Positions 9,248-49,193 of a stretch of 49,305 nucleotides of DNA are shown piece by piece. The stretch lies in assembly GCA_035484035.1 (NCBI GenBank), contig DATHPI010000119.1:1-49305 (forward strand), written 5' to 3'. Both the position numbers and the translations under genes were made by a program. Every line of letters begins with the position of its first letter. Position 1 is the first letter of the stretch. This DNA comes from Chthoniobacterales bacterium. Lineage in GTDB: Bacteria > Verrucomicrobiota > Verrucomicrobiia > Chthoniobacterales > JAFAMB01. Under the pieces are notes generated by a model. That model worked only from the letters and a program-made list of their open reading frames with translations. It searched no databases and was not told the DNA's origin.

Positions 9248-10621
9248 TCAAAACTGGTATTCTTTTCCGGGCTCGGGAATCACCGTGGATATCCCGGGCA
9301 ATTCCTTGGCGATCCTGGATTCAAACCAGGAAACCGCCGGTGGATCTCCGTGCACTAAAATCACGATTTTAGGCGAAAGCTTCCGGATGTAATCAAAGAG
9401 GAGTTCTCGCGGCGCGTGGGCGCTGAAATCAAATTCACTGACTTGGCACGCCAAACTCTGGCTTGGCAACCCTTCGTCAAGTTGAACAAGATCATGAGGT
9501 CGAGCCGCTTTCAATCGGCCGCCGGGTGACTCCGGATCAGCATAACCGACAAAGAATACCGATTGCCTCGGATCAGTCAGGAAACGCTCCGCCAACTGGT
9601 TTGACAAAGTTTTCTCCGTCATCATCCCGCTGGAAAGGGCGTAAATCCGTCGCCGGCCAATCTGTGTCGTTTGCACGTCGCGACTGCTCAATACGTGCGG
9701 TCCAAGCGAATCCAGAAGTTGCAACCCTTCATATTGCCGCGAAGTCCGAGATGCCAGCTGATCATGTAAAATCGTAATCTTCGTGCTCAGACCACCGATA
9801 TAAATCGGGACATGCTGAAGCTCGCCTTGACGCTTGAACAGATGAAGCATGGTAAGGATCTCCTGGGTCTTCCCGAGGGCGAAGACCGGGACCAGGATGG
9901 ATCCTCCTTTATCAAAAGCCTCTTCGATTGCGGCCAGGAACCGACGCTCTTCGGCCTTTCGGGAATACCCCACTTCGAGTGAACGATCGCCCCGCGTCGT
10001 TTCAATAATCAGGATATCGATATCATCTTCCGGAAAATCGGCTCCTCGCATCAACGTCTGTTGCAAAAAATTCACATCGCCGGTGTAAAAAACCTTCTTC
10101 CCTTCCGCTCGAAGTAGAATCCCCGCCGATCCGAGGATATGACCAGAATCATACATCTCGAATGTCAAATCGTGATCGGGCTTCGGCACTCGCTCTCCGT
10201 CAAGGGTCCAATACTGCCGGAAACCAACGCTTTGCCAAAGTTCAGAAGCATGGTCCGCCTCCCGATGGGTAAAAAGCGGATAATTCGGAATCCGAAGTTC
10301 GTCTCGCTGTCGCGACATCACGTTCACGGAGTTGTGCAACATGACATCCGACAGCTTCGCAGTTGCGCCGGTCATGAAAACTCTCGCCTGTGGTTGTCTC
10401 CGCATCAGGACCGGTAGCGAACCGATATGATCCTGGTGTGCGTGCGAGATGAGAATCGCGTCGAGCGAGCTATCGGGAATTATTCGATAATGCGGCAGCG
10501 CTGCGTCCCCCTCGTGCTTAGGATGCAACCCCGCGTCAAGCACTAGTTTCTTGCCGTCCAGCTCCAGGAAATAGGAATTCGCACCAATCTCCGTTTGCCG
10601 GGTCAAATTTATAAATCGCAT
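9248..10621 (-). CDS. MBL-fold metallo-hydrolase, beta-CASP (CPSF/RNase J-like) RNA-metabolising nuclease
   Basis: HAHQDHIG (HxHxDH) motif, a downstream D/H motifs pattern and a C-terminal VILVHGD. The ORF opens at TTG 10645, and the first in-frame ATG (MRFINL...) is at 10621. Confidence 0.88.
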   Translation of the reverse strand: MRFINLTRQTEIGANSYFLELDGKKLVLDAGLHPKHEGDAALPHYRIIPDSSLDAILISHAHQDHIGSLPVLMRRQPQARVFMTGATAKLSDVMLHNSVNVMSRQRDELRIPNYPLFTHREADHASELWQSVGFRQYWTLDGERVPKPDHDLTFEMYDSGHILGSAGILLRAEGKKVFYTGDVNFLQQTLMRGADFPEDDIDILIIETTRGDRSLEVGYSRKAEERRFLAAIEEAFDKGGSILVPVFALGKTQEILTMLHLFKRQGELQHVPIYIGGLSTKITILHDQLASRTSRQYEGLQLLDSLGPHVLSSRDVQTTQIGRRRIYALSSGMMTEKTLSNQLAERFLTDPRQSVFFVGYADPESPGGRLKAARPHDLVQLDEGLPSQSLACQVSEFDFSAHAPRELLFDYIRKLSPKIVILVHGDPPAVSWFESRIAKELPGISTVIPEPGKEYQF

Positions 10622-45265: not shown

Positions 45266-45658
45266 TCAATAGCCCGGTACTGGAACTGGAAGAAATGGAA
45301 ATGGAAGTGGGGCAGCCGGAACCGGGATAAAGTCGACAAAAAACGGACTGTCATCGGGGTAGTAACCTGACCTGTAATAGTGGCCGTGATAATAACCGCC
45401 TGCGTAATAACGGCCGCCATGAAAATAAGCACTGTGGTATCCACCCTCATGAACGCCGTGAGACGCACCTTGGTAGGAGCCGTGGTACCCGTTGTGATAG
45501 GCGCCGTGATATCCATTCTGGTAGCTCCCGTGGTACGCATTATGATAAGCCCCGGAATTACTTCCAGCAGAGCGAGTGACATGAGTGTTATTGTTATTGT
45601 TTCCAGCTTGGGCAGAAGCAACTAACGTTACCGTCAAAAGTAAAAGACTTAATTTCAT
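45266..45658 (-). CDS. Secreted Gly/Tyr/His tetrapeptide-repeat protein (hypothetical)
   Basis: 130 aa. The signal peptide MKLSLLLLTVTLVASAQA is followed by an Asn run, then ~15 consecutive [GAS]-Y-[HQ]-[GN]-type tetrads (AYHN AYHG SYQN GYHG AYHN GYHG SYQG ...), then a Pro/Phe/Val tail. Both the antisense ORF (45259..45621) and the second same-strand ORF are repeat artefacts. Confidence 0.6.
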   Translation of the reverse strand: MKLSLLLLTVTLVASAQAGNNNNNTHVTRSAGSNSGAYHNAYHGSYQNGYHGAYHNGYHGSYQGASHGVHEGGYHSAYFHGGRYYAGGYYHGHYYRSGYYPDDSPFFVDFIPVPAAPLPFPFLPVPVPGY

Positions 45659-46006: not shown

Positions 46007-46510
46007 ATGAGATTCTTGTGCCTTTTGGCTGTCGTGCTAGTAAGCGGATGCGCTGGCTTAGAACTCAATAGTACTGACCCAAACGCAGTCGCCTCCGGCG
46101 TAACGCGAACGAGTGATCCCTACACTCAAGTCACAAAGATAAGCGCGAGACCTATCCCGATGGTTCTTGATTTCCCGAACACGGCAACCGCATACCTAGT
46201 GGCCTTTGAGGGCAGAAGAAGAGAGGTTGATCTGGTGGTTCAATGTGTTTTTTCTAACGGGACAGGTGGCGGGCGATCCCTTCATCAAACCTTTGATAGC
46301 CAAGGAGCGGAACTGGAAACTAAGGTCGTCTCTCAGGACCAAAACGATTATGCAGTGACCGAGTCAATCGCCATTACTCTGTCAAGAGGTTACCTTGTTT
46401 CTCACGCCCAAAGCGGCCTCGATATGAAGCTTATTGGCGATACCGGCGCTGTGATAATCAAGGTCCCGGCCGCCTACGTGCAGGGTTTTCTAATCGCGTT
46501 AAAATCCTAA
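46007..46510 (+). CDS. Hypothetical lipoprotein
   Basis: 167 aa with lipobox LVSGC after a hydrophobic leader (MRFLCLLAVVLVSGCAG). No family was recognised. Confidence 0.65.
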   Translation: MRFLCLLAVVLVSGCAGLELNSTDPNAVASGVTRTSDPYTQVTKISARPIPMVLDFPNTATAYLVAFEGRRREVDLVVQCVFSNGTGGGRSLHQTFDSQGAELETKVVSQDQNDYAVTESIAITLSRGYLVSHAQSGLDMKLIGDTGAVIIKVPAAYVQGFLIALKS

Positions 46511-46659
46511 CAGCGAATTTCGGCTGGGTCGCCGCCCAGGTAGGAACAGACCTTGAGGAGAGAGCTACTTTAGGGTCAGCCGTGACCGGCTAACCCCTTG
46601 GAGCAGTGTTCAATACGTTGTGTTATTAACGTTATTATTCGAGAAGCGACAAGCGGGGA

Positions 46660-47484
46660 TTATGGATTGCTCGCTTCATGCGATTTTAGATCGCGAAGTT
46701 GAATCTCGCCACGGACTTCCAGGACGAATGGTGCGTTCCGGGGTACGATGAAACAGCGACCGTCTCGCCTTCGAAGTACTTCATCTTCGATCAGCGCTTC
46801 CTGACCTAAAACCCCAGGCAAACCTGCCGGCCTATCCAGGAGCTGAGCCTGGACTTGCAGCTCCGTATCGTCGAAGAATATCGACCATAGTCCATCCGAT
46901 TTGAATCGCCCGTTTTCCAGATCGAGTCGCCCCGAACCAACGACTCTGCTTCCTGCCATAATCAGAATTTTCCCCGCGGACGATACGATTTCTTGGCTAA
47001 CTACGCCGTGGATGGTAACGGTCCTCCCGTCCGCGTTGCTGAATGGCACGCTGGTCCTGCATTGAATGGCTAACGTCTTTGCCATGGTGTTCTGCACTGG
47101 ATCGACACGGATCGACAGCATGGTGATCGAAGGACCACCAGCGATTTTCGCCTTCGGCGAAAACGCCACATTGGTTACGGCTTCCGTAACAGGCTTCTGG
47201 GCGGAGGAATCCGCTTTTTGAAAAACGGAGAAATCAGGATACCAAAAGTGTGATGGACCACCTCCCGCGGCCATCACAAGGTTGCCAGGATACTGCCGAG
47301 GGGTGAAAGAGTCATCATGAGTTTTGGCAGGTGCCGAAACCGAGGACCTTAAAACCATCTTGGTCTGGTGATAGCGAGGACCTTGTTTGAGAAACTCTTG
47401 ATGAGTGCCCCAGATCATTGCGGCAGAGGCAGCCGTCCAGTAAAGCAAAGGCAGCCAAGGGGAAGCCAGGAGTGCCCGGATCAT
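46660..47484 (-). CDS. Membrane-anchored periplasmic protein with VirB10/TrbI-like C-terminal domain (tentative)
   Basis: The ATG at 47484 forms an ATGA overlap with the stop of the upstream Roadblock gene. There is one N-terminal TM helix (LLASPWLPLLYWTAASAAMIWG). The C-terminal segment IQCRTSVPFSNADGRTVTIHGVVSQEIVSSAGKILIMAGSRVVGSGRL...GLW...AGLPGVLGQ parallels, from memory, the VirB10/TrbI core (...IP.GS.LIG.Y...W...G..G). Confidence 0.6.
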   Translation of the reverse strand: MIRALLASPWLPLLYWTAASAAMIWGTHQEFLKQGPRYHQTKMVLRSSVSAPAKTHDDSFTPRQYPGNLVMAAGGGPSHFWYPDFSVFQKADSSAQKPVTEAVTNVAFSPKAKIAGGPSITMLSIRVDPVQNTMAKTLAIQCRTSVPFSNADGRTVTIHGVVSQEIVSSAGKILIMAGSRVVGSGRLDLENGRFKSDGLWSIFFDDTELQVQAQLLDRPAGLPGVLGQEALIEDEVLRRRDGRCFIVPRNAPFVLEVRGEIQLRDLKSHEASNP

Positions 47485-47903
47485 CGTTCCTCCGAGGTTG
47501 GTTGGAGCAAGCAATTGATCATCCGAGGAACGAGGATCCGCGCTTGGTATTCCAAGAGCCCCGTGCCGAAGGACGTTCTGCAAAGCATGACCATAGCGGC
47601 TTTGGGAGTGATGCCCATCACCAGGAGTTGATAGTCAGTTCCAATGGTGAGGCGACTCGAAACCTCCCCGTGCGCGCCGAGTTCGCGGACTAGGATTCGA
47701 GCGGTGGCAAAAATCATGGATGAGAAGACACCCAAAGTATCGATGTCGAGATCTGCAACCGTTGAGACTTTCGCGAGGATTGCGCCGTCGTCCTGCACTA
47801 TCAGAGCGCACACTGCATCGGTATTCCGCTGAAATTCATACAGACAACCCAGCAAAGATCGGGATTCCCACGCCAGCAATTCTCTTTTCTCGCACCCGGC
47901 CAC
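47481..47903 (-). CDS. Roadblock/LC7 domain protein (MglB-like)
   Basis: 140 aa with a GTG start 10 nt after the upstream stop. AVCALIVQDDGAILAKVSTVADLDIDTLGVFSSMIFATARILVRELG...LTIGTDYQLLVMGITPKAAMVMLC follows the Roadblock/MglB alpha-beta-alpha pattern. Confidence 0.7.
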   Translation of the reverse strand: MAGCEKRELLAWESRSLLGCLYEFQRNTDAVCALIVQDDGAILAKVSTVADLDIDTLGVFSSMIFATARILVRELGAHGEVSSRLTIGTDYQLLVMGITPKAAMVMLCRTSFGTGLLEYQARILVPRMINCLLQPTSEER

Positions 47904-47913
47904 AACTTTCTTC

Positions 47914-49002
47914 TCACGACTGTGTGCCGTAGATCATGTTGACCGCCTGAGCTGTTGCAACGAGCCGTTCGCGGAGACCCGGAGGAAGCCTTTTACCCTC
48001 GTGTGCTGACAGAATCAAAACATCCCCGCCAATCGTGACGCAGACCTGGAAAGCGTCACTGGAAATTGTCGCAAAACTCGGCGGGCCTCCTTCAATGTCC
48101 TGCGTGAAGCCCCGCAGATGCCTTACAAAGTCGGGAGTCAAACTAAGCAGTCCCTCACTGAGTCCTCCGCTTAACCCGCCTCCGAGGACAGCGCCGTCTG
48201 ACAGCATAATGACCACTCCCGCAACTCCAGGAAGTTGCAAGATCAGCGATGCGACCTTGGAACCGTCGAGCGGTTCGTCGGTAAGATAGAGCTCCTGAAG
48301 GCGCGCATAACCTTGACGACGCTTCTTTTCGCTCTGAATATTTGGAGCGCCAGCGATAAGAACAGCACCTGCTGAGTCCGGATGGCCCGATTCCAGCACG
48401 GGAAACAATTCCTCAATCACCGGTTTGGGCGGCTCCTCGCGAACCACCTGACTCTCAAGATCATTCTGAGTTCCGTTCGTCGCACTGGGTTGGACGATTT
48501 TTCCAATAGATTTATCGAATGCCGTCGGAATGGCAGTCGTCTCGTATGACCGGATTTTACCCGGGCGATCCGCGCGCCCGTTCTTAAATCTTGCTTCATC
48601 CTCGCGAGCGAGCTGCCCAAAGGGTGTATCAAAATCCTCCAGATCCGCTTCTTCCGGGGAGACGCCCGCAAACACATCCTGTAGCTGCGTCACTACCGCC
48701 CGGAGAGGAATAGTAAACTCGGTACCGGGGTTCGGAGGTTTCTCAAATAAGCCAGGATAAAGCTCGTGCAACACCGCCCCCTTGATCCGGGTTCGTCCCT
48801 CAAGGATGCCCAGAATCTTATCCGCTTTGACGCTGATCGCACCGCCGACTTTGCTCCAAACAACGGAGGCGGGCGATTGTCCGTCGAACAATTCTCCTTC
48901 ACGAACGAGCACATCCCGCTCGTTTAAAATCTCCCTCGTATTATCCCTGGCGACAGGAAGAGCGCCCTCTTCTTTTCGTTTGAACAATCTTTGGAAATCC
49001 AT
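47914..49002 (-). CDS. Hypothetical protein with C-terminal Roadblock/LC7-like domain and unrecognised ~230-aa N-terminal region
   Basis: 362 aa with an ATG start. The C-terminus ASLILQLPGVAGVVIMLSDGAVLGGGL...LTPDFVRHLRGFTQDIEGGPPSFATISSDAFQVCVTIGGDVLILSAHEG repeats the Roadblock pattern. The middle is acidic and low-complexity. Confidence 0.6.
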   Translation of the reverse strand: MDFQRLFKRKEEGALPVARDNTREILNERDVLVREGELFDGQSPASVVWSKVGGAISVKADKILGILEGRTRIKGAVLHELYPGLFEKPPNPGTEFTIPLRAVVTQLQDVFAGVSPEEADLEDFDTPFGQLAREDEARFKNGRADRPGKIRSYETTAIPTAFDKSIGKIVQPSATNGTQNDLESQVVREEPPKPVIEELFPVLESGHPDSAGAVLIAGAPNIQSEKKRRQGYARLQELYLTDEPLDGSKVASLILQLPGVAGVVIMLSDGAVLGGGLSGGLSEGLLSLTPDFVRHLRGFTQDIEGGPPSFATISSDAFQVCVTIGGDVLILSAHEGKRLPPGLRERLVATAQAVNMIYGTQS

Positions 49003-49102
49003 TTCGATAAACTCGGCAGTCTAAACAGCATTTTCGTCCAAAGGCAATTTGTTTCATCGGAGTATTACGTTTTATAATATCAGTTGTCAACGATCCATAA
49101 GT

Positions 49103-49193
49103 CTAGTGCATCGTCTCATATGTAGCTGGCATATGGCCGCGGCCCGGAGGGTTGCATTGAAAATGGCCGGCTACATATGAGACGATGCACTAG
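49103..49193. repeat. Perfect 24-bp inverted repeat (28 bp with one mismatch) around a ~35-43-nt spacer
   Basis: ctagtgcatcgtctcatatgtagc (49103-49126) is the exact reverse complement of gctacatatgagacgatgcactag (49170-49193). The arms extend by tggc/gccg. It lies ~100 bp upstream of the 47914..49002 gene, next to an AT-rich stretch (ttttataatatc). Confidence 0.95.

Follow-up and report, generated by a model that had tools for sequence, protein, structure and literature searches.

The 49,305-nucleotide (nt) stretch of Chthoniobacterales DNA analysed here (contig DATHPI010000119.1 of assembly GCA_035484035.1, positions 1 to 49,305; the window from here on) carries near its end a compact three-gene cassette that encodes two predicted Roadblock/LC7-type proteins and a remote relative of the VirB10/TrbI barrel of type IV secretion systems (T4SSs). 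Our main finding is that this cassette usually stands at the front of a gene cluster of the type IV pilus-like (type IV filament) kind, and that the lineage of the window has recently lost or relocated that cluster, leaving an intact orphan cassette behind. A preliminary description of the same DNA, made from the sequence alone, had presented the three genes as a module with no partner system. This proves to be a local and recent state, since in relatives the cassette opens a pilus-like cluster or follows an MglA-type GTPase gene.

The three genes lie on the minus strand, and we coined the names RblA, RblB and B10L for their products of 362, 140 and 274 amino acids (aa). According to the open reading frame (ORF) calls, RblA occupies 47914..49002, RblB 47481..47903 with a GTG start, and B10L 46660..47484 when read from its ATG; a longer, TTG-initiated form of B10L is also listed. 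Inspection of the sequence places the GTG start of RblB 10 nt (GAAGAAAGTT) after the TGA stop of RblA, and the RblB stop and the B10L start overlap as ATGA, exactly the packing given in the preliminary description. The relatives L004 and L026 have the same spacing, with RblA ending at approximately 9572 and RblB starting at 9582 (gene maps and tblastn coordinates), and the same overlap, with RblB ending at 10004 and B10L starting at 10001. Given the identical spacing in relatives, the packing of the cassette is a conserved feature and not a product of chance.

The gene-neighbourhood check suggested in the preliminary description was run on 63 non-redundant related loci. All cassette homologs stem from Verrucomicrobiae/Chthoniobacterales metagenome-assembled genomes and from soil metagenomes. 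A Roadblock gene is found directly upstream of B10L in 48 of the 50 loci that could be assessed (at least 450 nt of upstream sequence), and RblA lies upstream in 36 of the 39 loci with at least 900 nt. On the other side of B10L, a small pilin-like gene is present in 20 of 39 loci with at least 500 nt of downstream sequence, and T2SSF (PilC/GspF) in 13 of 27 loci with at least 1800 nt. On long contigs, the gene order is permease, RblA, RblB, B10L, pilin-like gene, T2SSF and four small genes, continuing with the secretin, N-methyl pilins, a 424-aa protein and T2SSE; the pilus-linked loci are L002, L004, L005, L009, L010, L016, L019, L026, L029, L032, L033 and L059. For the platform protein and the secretin, the top-ranking NCBIfam models are GspF/PilC and GspD/MshL/PilQ, respectively, with scores under the curated cut-offs. 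The four small genes, which occupy the PilM/N/O/P positions, gave nothing in Pfam and NCBIfam except for a weak GspM/T2SSM match of a 198-aa protein. Even a distant B10L relative (L022) has the order Robl_LC7, B10L, pilin-like gene, T2SSF.

Not all members of the cassette are equally persistent. The RblB gene is missing in approximately 10 related loci, and because RblA and B10L are still adjacent there, we consider these two to be the core pair. The pair is also kept without pilus genes and without RblB in L013, L014, L037, L040-L043 and L049; in L008, L013 and L014, neither a GTPase nor a pilus gene was found nearby. In one locus (L020, 749-1918; P0353), a single protein of 389 aa combines in one frame a Roadblock domain with a hydrophobic segment and the barrel of B10L, which would be a natural fusion of RblB to B10L if it is not an assembly error. 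We also noticed that the RblA gene of L004 (6450-9572) is split in two by an insert of approximately 2 kb, which contains three called genes without Pfam match, the first resembling a transposase fragment by eye. A gene for a Rep3_C replication protein lies at the contig end near this split RblA, and insertion sequence (IS) fragments are also located near the cassette.

The window as a whole is ordinary chromosome, with genes for ATP synthase, Lon, a MacB-type exporter, an NtrC-type regulator, citrate synthase and PPK2, and no GTPase, T4SS or pilus genes are detectable across its 49 kb. Beyond the window end, we relied on L001 and L007, close relatives whose B10L proteins are 86-88% identical to that of the window; judged from these, an amino-acid permease gene and unrelated genes follow, and no GTPase, T4SS or pilus genes are present in the next 10 kb. 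The absence of GTPase and T4SS genes from the flanks, as first described, is therefore correct locally. A quite different picture is obtained for L026. Its B10L is 71% identical, and its upstream synteny (aldolase, glycosyltransferase, dehydrogenase, permease) is that of L001 and the window, but it keeps the full pilus cluster, which is absent from the window, L001 and L007. By blastn, window positions 49087-46607 align to L026 8401-10876 with 82% identity, and nothing aligns beyond. The homology thus ends 53 nt past the B10L stop, where the pilin-like gene of L026 begins, and this defines a breakpoint zone at 46607..46659 on the minus strand. In L012, L034 and L035, a 22-aa remnant of the pilin-like gene has been kept. 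Since L026 shares the synteny and retains the cluster, and since homology stops at the pilin-like gene, it is clear that the pilus cluster was lost or relocated recently in the lineage of the window. This loss of the downstream pilus genes explains the seemingly partner-less module.

Both proteins that had been described as Roadblock-like hold up as such, RblA through the model and fold matches of its C-terminal domain and RblB through a borderline family score and a profile match. In RblA, residues 252-330 match Pfam Robl_LC7 (PF03259) with E 2.1e-3 and 18.2 bits, below the cut-off of 23, and a Pfam scan of 37 family members gave matches at E<=0.1 for only 7. The AlphaFold2 (AF2) model is more informative. 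In it, the C-terminal part (aa ~222-358, nt ~47929-48339, minus strand; predicted local distance difference test (pLDDT) score ~90) forms a confidently predicted domain with a helix at 247-255, strands at 260-267 and 272-275, a helix at 283-300, strands at 310-335 and a final helix at 343-358. The best 50 PDB matches that Foldseek lists for this domain are without exception Roadblock, MglB, LAMTOR or dynein LC7 structures, with a top E-value of ~1e-5 and target-normalised TM-scores of 0.53-0.80. On this modelling evidence, the C-terminal domain of RblA is predicted to be a Roadblock alpha-beta-alpha sandwich. It is preceded by a linker that is disordered in the model (aa 143-220) and varies in length among homologs, and by a conserved N-terminal alpha/beta domain (aa ~20-112, nt ~48667-48945, minus strand; pLDDT 70-88). 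For the latter, no consistent Pfam match was obtained across the 37 family members and no fold match was found, the PDB Foldseek list being swamped by Roadblock structures and the viral library giving nothing at E<=0.001. A search of the RblA family profile against PDB sequences likewise returned nothing but low-complexity linker matches. We collected 154 RblA homologs, and those with names are all from Verrucomicrobia.

For RblB, the Pfam Robl_LC7 score is borderline at 22.9 bits (gathering cut-off 23; E 7.4e-5), and E<=0.1 is reached by 21 of the 32 family members. The family profile finds CvnB5 (3leq), a Roadblock protein of a conservon, in the PDB with E 5.6e-3 over 107 aligned residues (26-132), and the COG-based name given to RblB homologs by JGI is Roadblock/LC7/MglB family. 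Judged from these profile matches, RblB is predicted to be a single-domain Roadblock/LC7-type protein. Aligning the RblB and RblA families with each other (hhalign) was uninformative, as both alignments are of low diversity.

The third protein, B10L, ends in a domain (aa ~136-260, nt ~46705-47079, minus strand) that is modelled as all-beta by AF2 with pLDDT 75-90. Its top 23 Foldseek matches in the PDB are all VirB10-family C-terminal domains, including TrwE, TraF of pKM101, CagY, Xanthomonas VirB10, F-plasmid TraB and ComB10; the best E-value is 3.9e-5, and the next matches are noise. At the sequence level, the similarity is remote. NCBIfam T4SS_VirB10 (NF038091) is matched with E 2.1e-3 and 17.6 bits, not reaching the cut-off of 220, whereas Pfam TrbI (PF03743) matches neither the B10L of the window nor, at E<=0.1, any of 38 family members, and the family profile finds nothing among PDB sequences. 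Independently, we ran an unfiltered HMMER search with the B10L family profile over 1.84 billion representative proteins. It returned 56 matches in total, and of the 14 weakest (from E 3.8e-8), all 10 tested pass the Pfam TrbI threshold. Among those tested, true TrbI proteins are thus the sole relatives by sequence beyond the B10L family. In addition, hhalign pairs the B10L family with one TrbI protein at 93% probability and 35% identity over 60 columns, and shared sequence motifs are visible in B10L and TrbI proteins. Because the Foldseek matches, the tail of the HMMER search and hhalign agree, B10L is a remote relative of the VirB10/TrbI barrel with detectable common ancestry, and not a standard member. 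The VirB10/TrbI likeness seen by eye in the preliminary description has thus been confirmed, even though the curated thresholds are not reached. The same cannot be said for its proposal of an envelope-spanning VirB10. The antenna region, measured from the GLPG motif to the last strands, has 16 residues in B10L compared to 71 in the TrbI proteins P0376 and P0378, the modelled C-domain has no helices, and the barrel comprises ~125 residues instead of the ~190 of VirB10. With the outer-membrane antenna absent, B10L is not envelope-spanning. Furthermore, neither in the window nor in any of the 63 loci is B10L accompanied by VirB4, VirB7, VirB8, VirB9, VirB11 or VirD4 genes.

The N-terminal part of B10L is conserved and consists of a peptide and a hydrophobic helix (aa 1-28, nt 47401-47484, minus strand; helix 11-28 in the AF2 model), followed by a linker (aa 29-135) that is disordered in the model and contains 9% Pro. 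Of the single transmembrane anchor described previously, the hydrophobic segment stands, but its hydrophobicity is moderate and a signal peptide is an alternative. Residues 4-26 have a mean Kyte-Doolittle value of ~1.1 by hand calculation, no 19-residue window of the segment exceeds 1.19, the maximum reached elsewhere in B10L, and the segment is rich in Trp, Tyr and Pro. It may be either a membrane anchor or a signal peptide. By eye, the N-termini of some distant B10L relatives resemble signal peptides and, for this reason, the barrel is most likely periplasmic. In the family alignment, M1, I2, R3, L6, A7, S8, W10, P12 and L13 are each at least 90% conserved. The nearly invariant residues 1-10 (MIRxxLASPW, nt 47484-47455) recall by eye the N-terminal peptide with which PilN binds PilM (M-x-R-I-N-L-L-P-W); the protein in the PilN position of the pilus clusters has no motif of this type.

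In some genomes, the cassette sits directly behind a gene for an MglA-type small GTPase. This 215-aa protein is encoded upstream of RblA in 6 loci (L004, L006, L015, L042, L043 and L050), and it matches Myxococcus xanthus MglA (6h17) over its full length with E 3.9e-27. The MglA-like gene is often preceded by genes for a PATAN/DUF4388-FGE-sulfatase protein and a 422-aa protein (p422). PATAN domains are recognised neighbours of mglA and mglB (PMC4316618). The PATAN/DUF4388::FGE-sulfatase gene lies directly upstream of the MglA-like gene in L004 (2201-3469), L015 (4375-5640), L043 (257-1522) and L050 (5379-6638), and FGE-sulfatase is an unusual fusion partner for a PATAN domain. In L004, there is also an upstream gene for a PilT-family ATPase, for which NCBIfam PilT is top-ranked, under its curated cut-off. 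Without exception in the GTPase-linked loci, a 159-aa coiled-coil protein with a hydrophobic C-terminal tail is encoded between the MglA-like gene (or PilT) and RblA (L004 5796-6275; L015 6469-6945; L042 1132-1602; L043 2715-3185; L050 7465-7941), and this protein may be a further member of the module.

A wider context is provided by loci with true TrbI genes. In L025, a TrbI protein above threshold (P0376) is followed by a weakly T2SSB/T2SSC-like (secretin-interacting) gene and then by T2SSF. The true TrbI genes of both L024 and L025, which lie on contigs of 2.5-4 kb and hence give partial context, are preceded by a gene for a 301-aa secreted protein (p301; 812-1717 in L024). Over 242 aa, p301 is 33% identical to its homolog p422 from the MglA-linked loci, and the TrbI, p301 and p422 loci are at L025 250-2502, L024 812-2700, L004 899-2167, L015 3132-4289 and L050 4163-5296. 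The p422/p301 family matches Pfam CagX with E 0.11, a hint-level similarity to VirB9, and has no match among PDB sequences. There may be a wider, so far undescribed class of type IV filament systems that employs VirB10-like and perhaps VirB9-like components.

The stretch from B10L to AHSA1 is variable among close relatives. Two genes take up approximately 1.2 kb of it, a segment that L007 lacks and that is lost or truncated in L001; this is a rearrangement hot spot beside the cassette. One of the two is a lipoprotein gene on the plus strand (46007..46510; lipobox LVSGC), which had been compared with VirB7/9/10 logic in the preliminary description. We dropped this gene as a VirB7-like partner because it is not conserved even in the closest relatives, L001 having a 35-aa remnant and L007 none. 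A weak similarity between the lipoprotein and the pilin-like gene (E 0.003, 36 aa) is on the opposite strand and was taken as chance. A 130-aa, secreted-looking protein with Gly/Tyr/His/Asn-rich repeats (GYHGAYHNGYHGSYQ) is encoded at 45266..45658 on the minus strand and is missing or truncated in L001 and L007. Upstream of RblA, a consensus scan gave a sigma-70-like promoter at 49061..49090 on the minus strand (TTGACA, 18 nt, AATACT; 10/12 positions), in a 5' region that is well conserved in L001 and L007; since such sites are no commoner in the region than in shuffled sequence, it is a candidate only. Approximately 12 nt upstream of it, a repeat search revealed a palindromic insertion at 49103..49193 that resembles a miniature inverted-repeat transposable element (MITE), without assigned strand, with 28-nt arms and a 35-nt loop. 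It is present once in the window and, compared to L001 and L007, represents an 86-bp insertion flanked by CTAG.

What could such a cassette do? We lean, by a small margin over doubt, towards a cassette with a regulatory and coupling role in a type IV pilus machine. RblA and RblB would be cytoplasmic and would pair via their Roadblock domains, like MglB dimers or MglB/MglC, and the pair would sense or determine the nucleotide state of an MglA-like GTPase, or would itself be acted on by the GTPase. The near-invariant N-terminal peptide and helix of B10L would tie this switch to the inner membrane, and B10L would hold its antenna-less barrel in the periplasm on the long flexible linker, where the barrel could contact periplasmic or secretin parts of the pilus machine. 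A pore would not be formed by B10L, given that the cluster has a secretin. In T4SSs, VirB10 connects the inner-membrane ATPases with the outer-membrane complex. The cassette might comparably connect a GTPase switch in the cytoplasm with how the pilus machine is assembled, placed or gated. In the genome studied here, it would then have to serve, in trans, a pilus system whose genes lie elsewhere, or else be heading to decay. A more specific version is a tentative proposal about which we remain doubtful. In it, a VirB10-type barrel, hitherto known as a part of the T4SS core, would have been recruited into a type IV pilus machine of soil Verrucomicrobiota and have lost its outer-membrane antenna; firmly tied to MglB-like Roadblock proteins, it would be the arm by which a small-GTPase switch reaches across the envelope and decides where or when the pilus is built.

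A number of points weigh against a coupling cassette. MglA is adjacent in just 6 loci, 5 of which have no pilus cluster downstream, and the PilM/N/O/P labels of the four small genes come from size and order alone. The cytoplasmic part of B10L has at most ~10 residues, which offers scant surface for a Roadblock dimer, and its weakly hydrophobic N-segment could be a cleaved signal peptide, in which case any cytoplasmic contact would be gone. The Roadblock::B10L fusion is found on one metagenome contig of 2.4 kb and is possibly an assembly or frameshift artefact. An alternative is an arrangement in which the proteins are co-transcribed and yet functionally separate pilus accessories, with B10L as a purely structural component in the periplasm (PilP/GspC/TsaP-like alignment or secretin support) and the Roadblock proteins as ordinary polarity regulators of the MglB/MglC kind that share the operon by chance. 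We regard this arrangement as a minority view, unlikely on balance and nevertheless to be taken seriously: about half of the loci run on into a pilus cluster, P0376 of L025, the closest TrbI relative with readable context, precedes a T2SSB/T2SSC-like gene and T2SSF, and B10L has almost no cytoplasmic part. However, separate accessories would not be expected to stay paired, as RblA and B10L do, in loci without pilus genes and without RblB. The conserved stop/start overlap and the one in-frame fusion also speak against them, and a near-invariant N-terminal peptide, as seen in B10L, is unusual for a passive anchor.

Other observations would suit a non-functional remnant of a deleted pilus operon in which disabling mutations are still to come; three of them, namely the faster evolution of the cassette, a frameshift and a mobile element, also count against the coupling reading, being compatible with early decay. 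The pilus cluster is absent in the window, L001 and L007 and present in L026 with its shared upstream synteny, and close relatives differ by rearrangements downstream of B10L. The ratio of nonsynonymous to synonymous substitution rates (dN/dS) of the cassette versus L007 and L001 is 0.18-0.45, and the values for RblA and B10L (0.32-0.45) exceed those of PPK2 (0.11) and citrate synthase (0.016); AHSA1 has 0.24. In the lineage of the window, the cassette evolves faster than its housekeeping neighbours (0.32-0.39 versus 0.016-0.24). RblB is frameshifted in L001 (9581-10001), and a mobile element, the 86-bp insertion, lies at the candidate promoter of the cassette in this genome only. Despite these signs, we consider a remnant quite unlikely. 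None of the three ORFs is disrupted in the window or in L007, dN/dS is well under 1 and close to that between pilus-linked relatives (0.20-0.29 for B10L, 0.23 for RblA), and 16 cluster representatives with 82-99% identity have almost the full length, at 268-275 aa. In addition, the amino-acid permease gene of L007 (6425-8207) is frameshifted as well and, because this clearly needed gene is also affected, the frameshifts in L001 and L007 are probably sequencing or assembly errors and not true pseudogenes.

The reading closest to the preliminary description, a self-contained new signalling module in which a Roadblock pair and an envelope-spanning VirB10-like sensor operate independently of GTPases, T4SSs and pili, has become very improbable. 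It would account for the window, L008, L013 and L014, where no GTPase or pilus gene is nearby, and for a gene combination without literature match, but the 63-locus context links the cassette to pilus genes or MglA, B10L has no outer-membrane antenna, and the lipoprotein neighbour is not conserved. Finally, the VirB10-like fold and sequence of the barrel, together with the Rep3_C gene and IS fragments in L004, could mean that the cassette borders a conventional T4SS or a conjugative element. We give this next to no credence: neither the window nor the 63 loci contain a VirB4, VirB8, VirB9, VirB11 or VirD4 family match, the window consists of chromosome with housekeeping genes (ATP synthase, Lon, MacB, citrate synthase), and Pfam TrbI matches none of the 38 B10L family members. 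A T4SS or conjugative origin is thus excluded by gene context.

The family-level finding is unexpected, while the window itself is an orphaned copy. T4SSs and type IV pili are commonly regarded as separate machines with separate part lists, and a VirB10-type barrel as a regular member of pilus clusters would, if true, be a clear exchange of parts between the two. An antenna-less, minimal VirB10 barrel also offers a chance to study roles of this domain other than pore formation. The pairing with Roadblock proteins and the recurring MglA and PATAN neighbours would extend the steering of pili by MglA/MglB to an abundant and little-studied soil phylum, and they hint at how a GTPase switch in the cytoplasm might physically reach the part of the machine that lies in the periplasm. 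No such GTPase-to-periplasm route is known for Myxococcus. Literature searches returned no description of a VirB10/TrbI-like protein in pilus, secretin or type IV filament clusters, or together with Roadblock/MglB proteins; as far as these searches reach, the earlier statement that the gene combination matches no described system stands.

Among known systems, the cassette is nearest to the VirB10/TrbI family and to the MglA/MglB(/MglC) polarity module, by which Myxococcus xanthus controls its type IV pili (6h5b, 6izw, 6hjm; PMC3199381, PMC9481161, PMC10329633). The cassette and this module both have Roadblock folds, MglB being among the top matches of the RblA C-domain model, and the two different Roadblock proteins of the cassette occur together, as do MglB and MglC. 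Six relatives have an adjacent MglA homolog, and there is a genomic tie to pilus genes and a PilT-like ATPase. Unlike MglA/MglB, the cassette has no GTPase gene in the window, and RblA has an added conserved N-terminal domain and a long disordered linker. Moreover, translational coupling joins the Roadblock genes of the cassette to a VirB10-like protein of the membrane or periplasm, for which the Myxococcus module has no counterpart, and partners of the RomR/RomX type were not seen with the cassette.

The conservons of Streptomyces (CvnA-D) consist of a histidine kinase, the Roadblock protein CvnB, CvnC and the MglA-like GTPase CvnD. The cassette resembles them as a conserved multi-gene unit that pairs a Roadblock protein with a membrane protein, and the best PDB sequence match of the RblB profile is CvnB5 (3leq). 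However, a histidine kinase and CvnC are both missing from the cassette, and its membrane partner, phylum and pilus context are different. With PilP/GspC, B10L would share the role of an inner-membrane-tethered periplasmic domain in a secretin cluster, as proposed from its context. The folds are unrelated, a VirB10 barrel in B10L and an HR beta-sandwich in PilP/GspC, and the pilus clusters hold, besides B10L, a separate 190-aa protein in the PilP position. Compared to VirB10/TrbI proteins (3jqo, TraF of pKM101; 8rt6, TrwE; 6odi, CagY; 2bhv, ComB10), B10L has the same succession of hydrophobic N-segment, flexible linker and C-terminal beta-barrel. It differs from them in staying under the Pfam TrbI and NCBIfam VirB10 thresholds, in its shorter barrel without the antenna helix pair of the outer-membrane pore, and in its company: B10L is never found with VirB7/8/9/4/11/D4 genes and instead sits in pilus-like clusters that have a secretin of their own.

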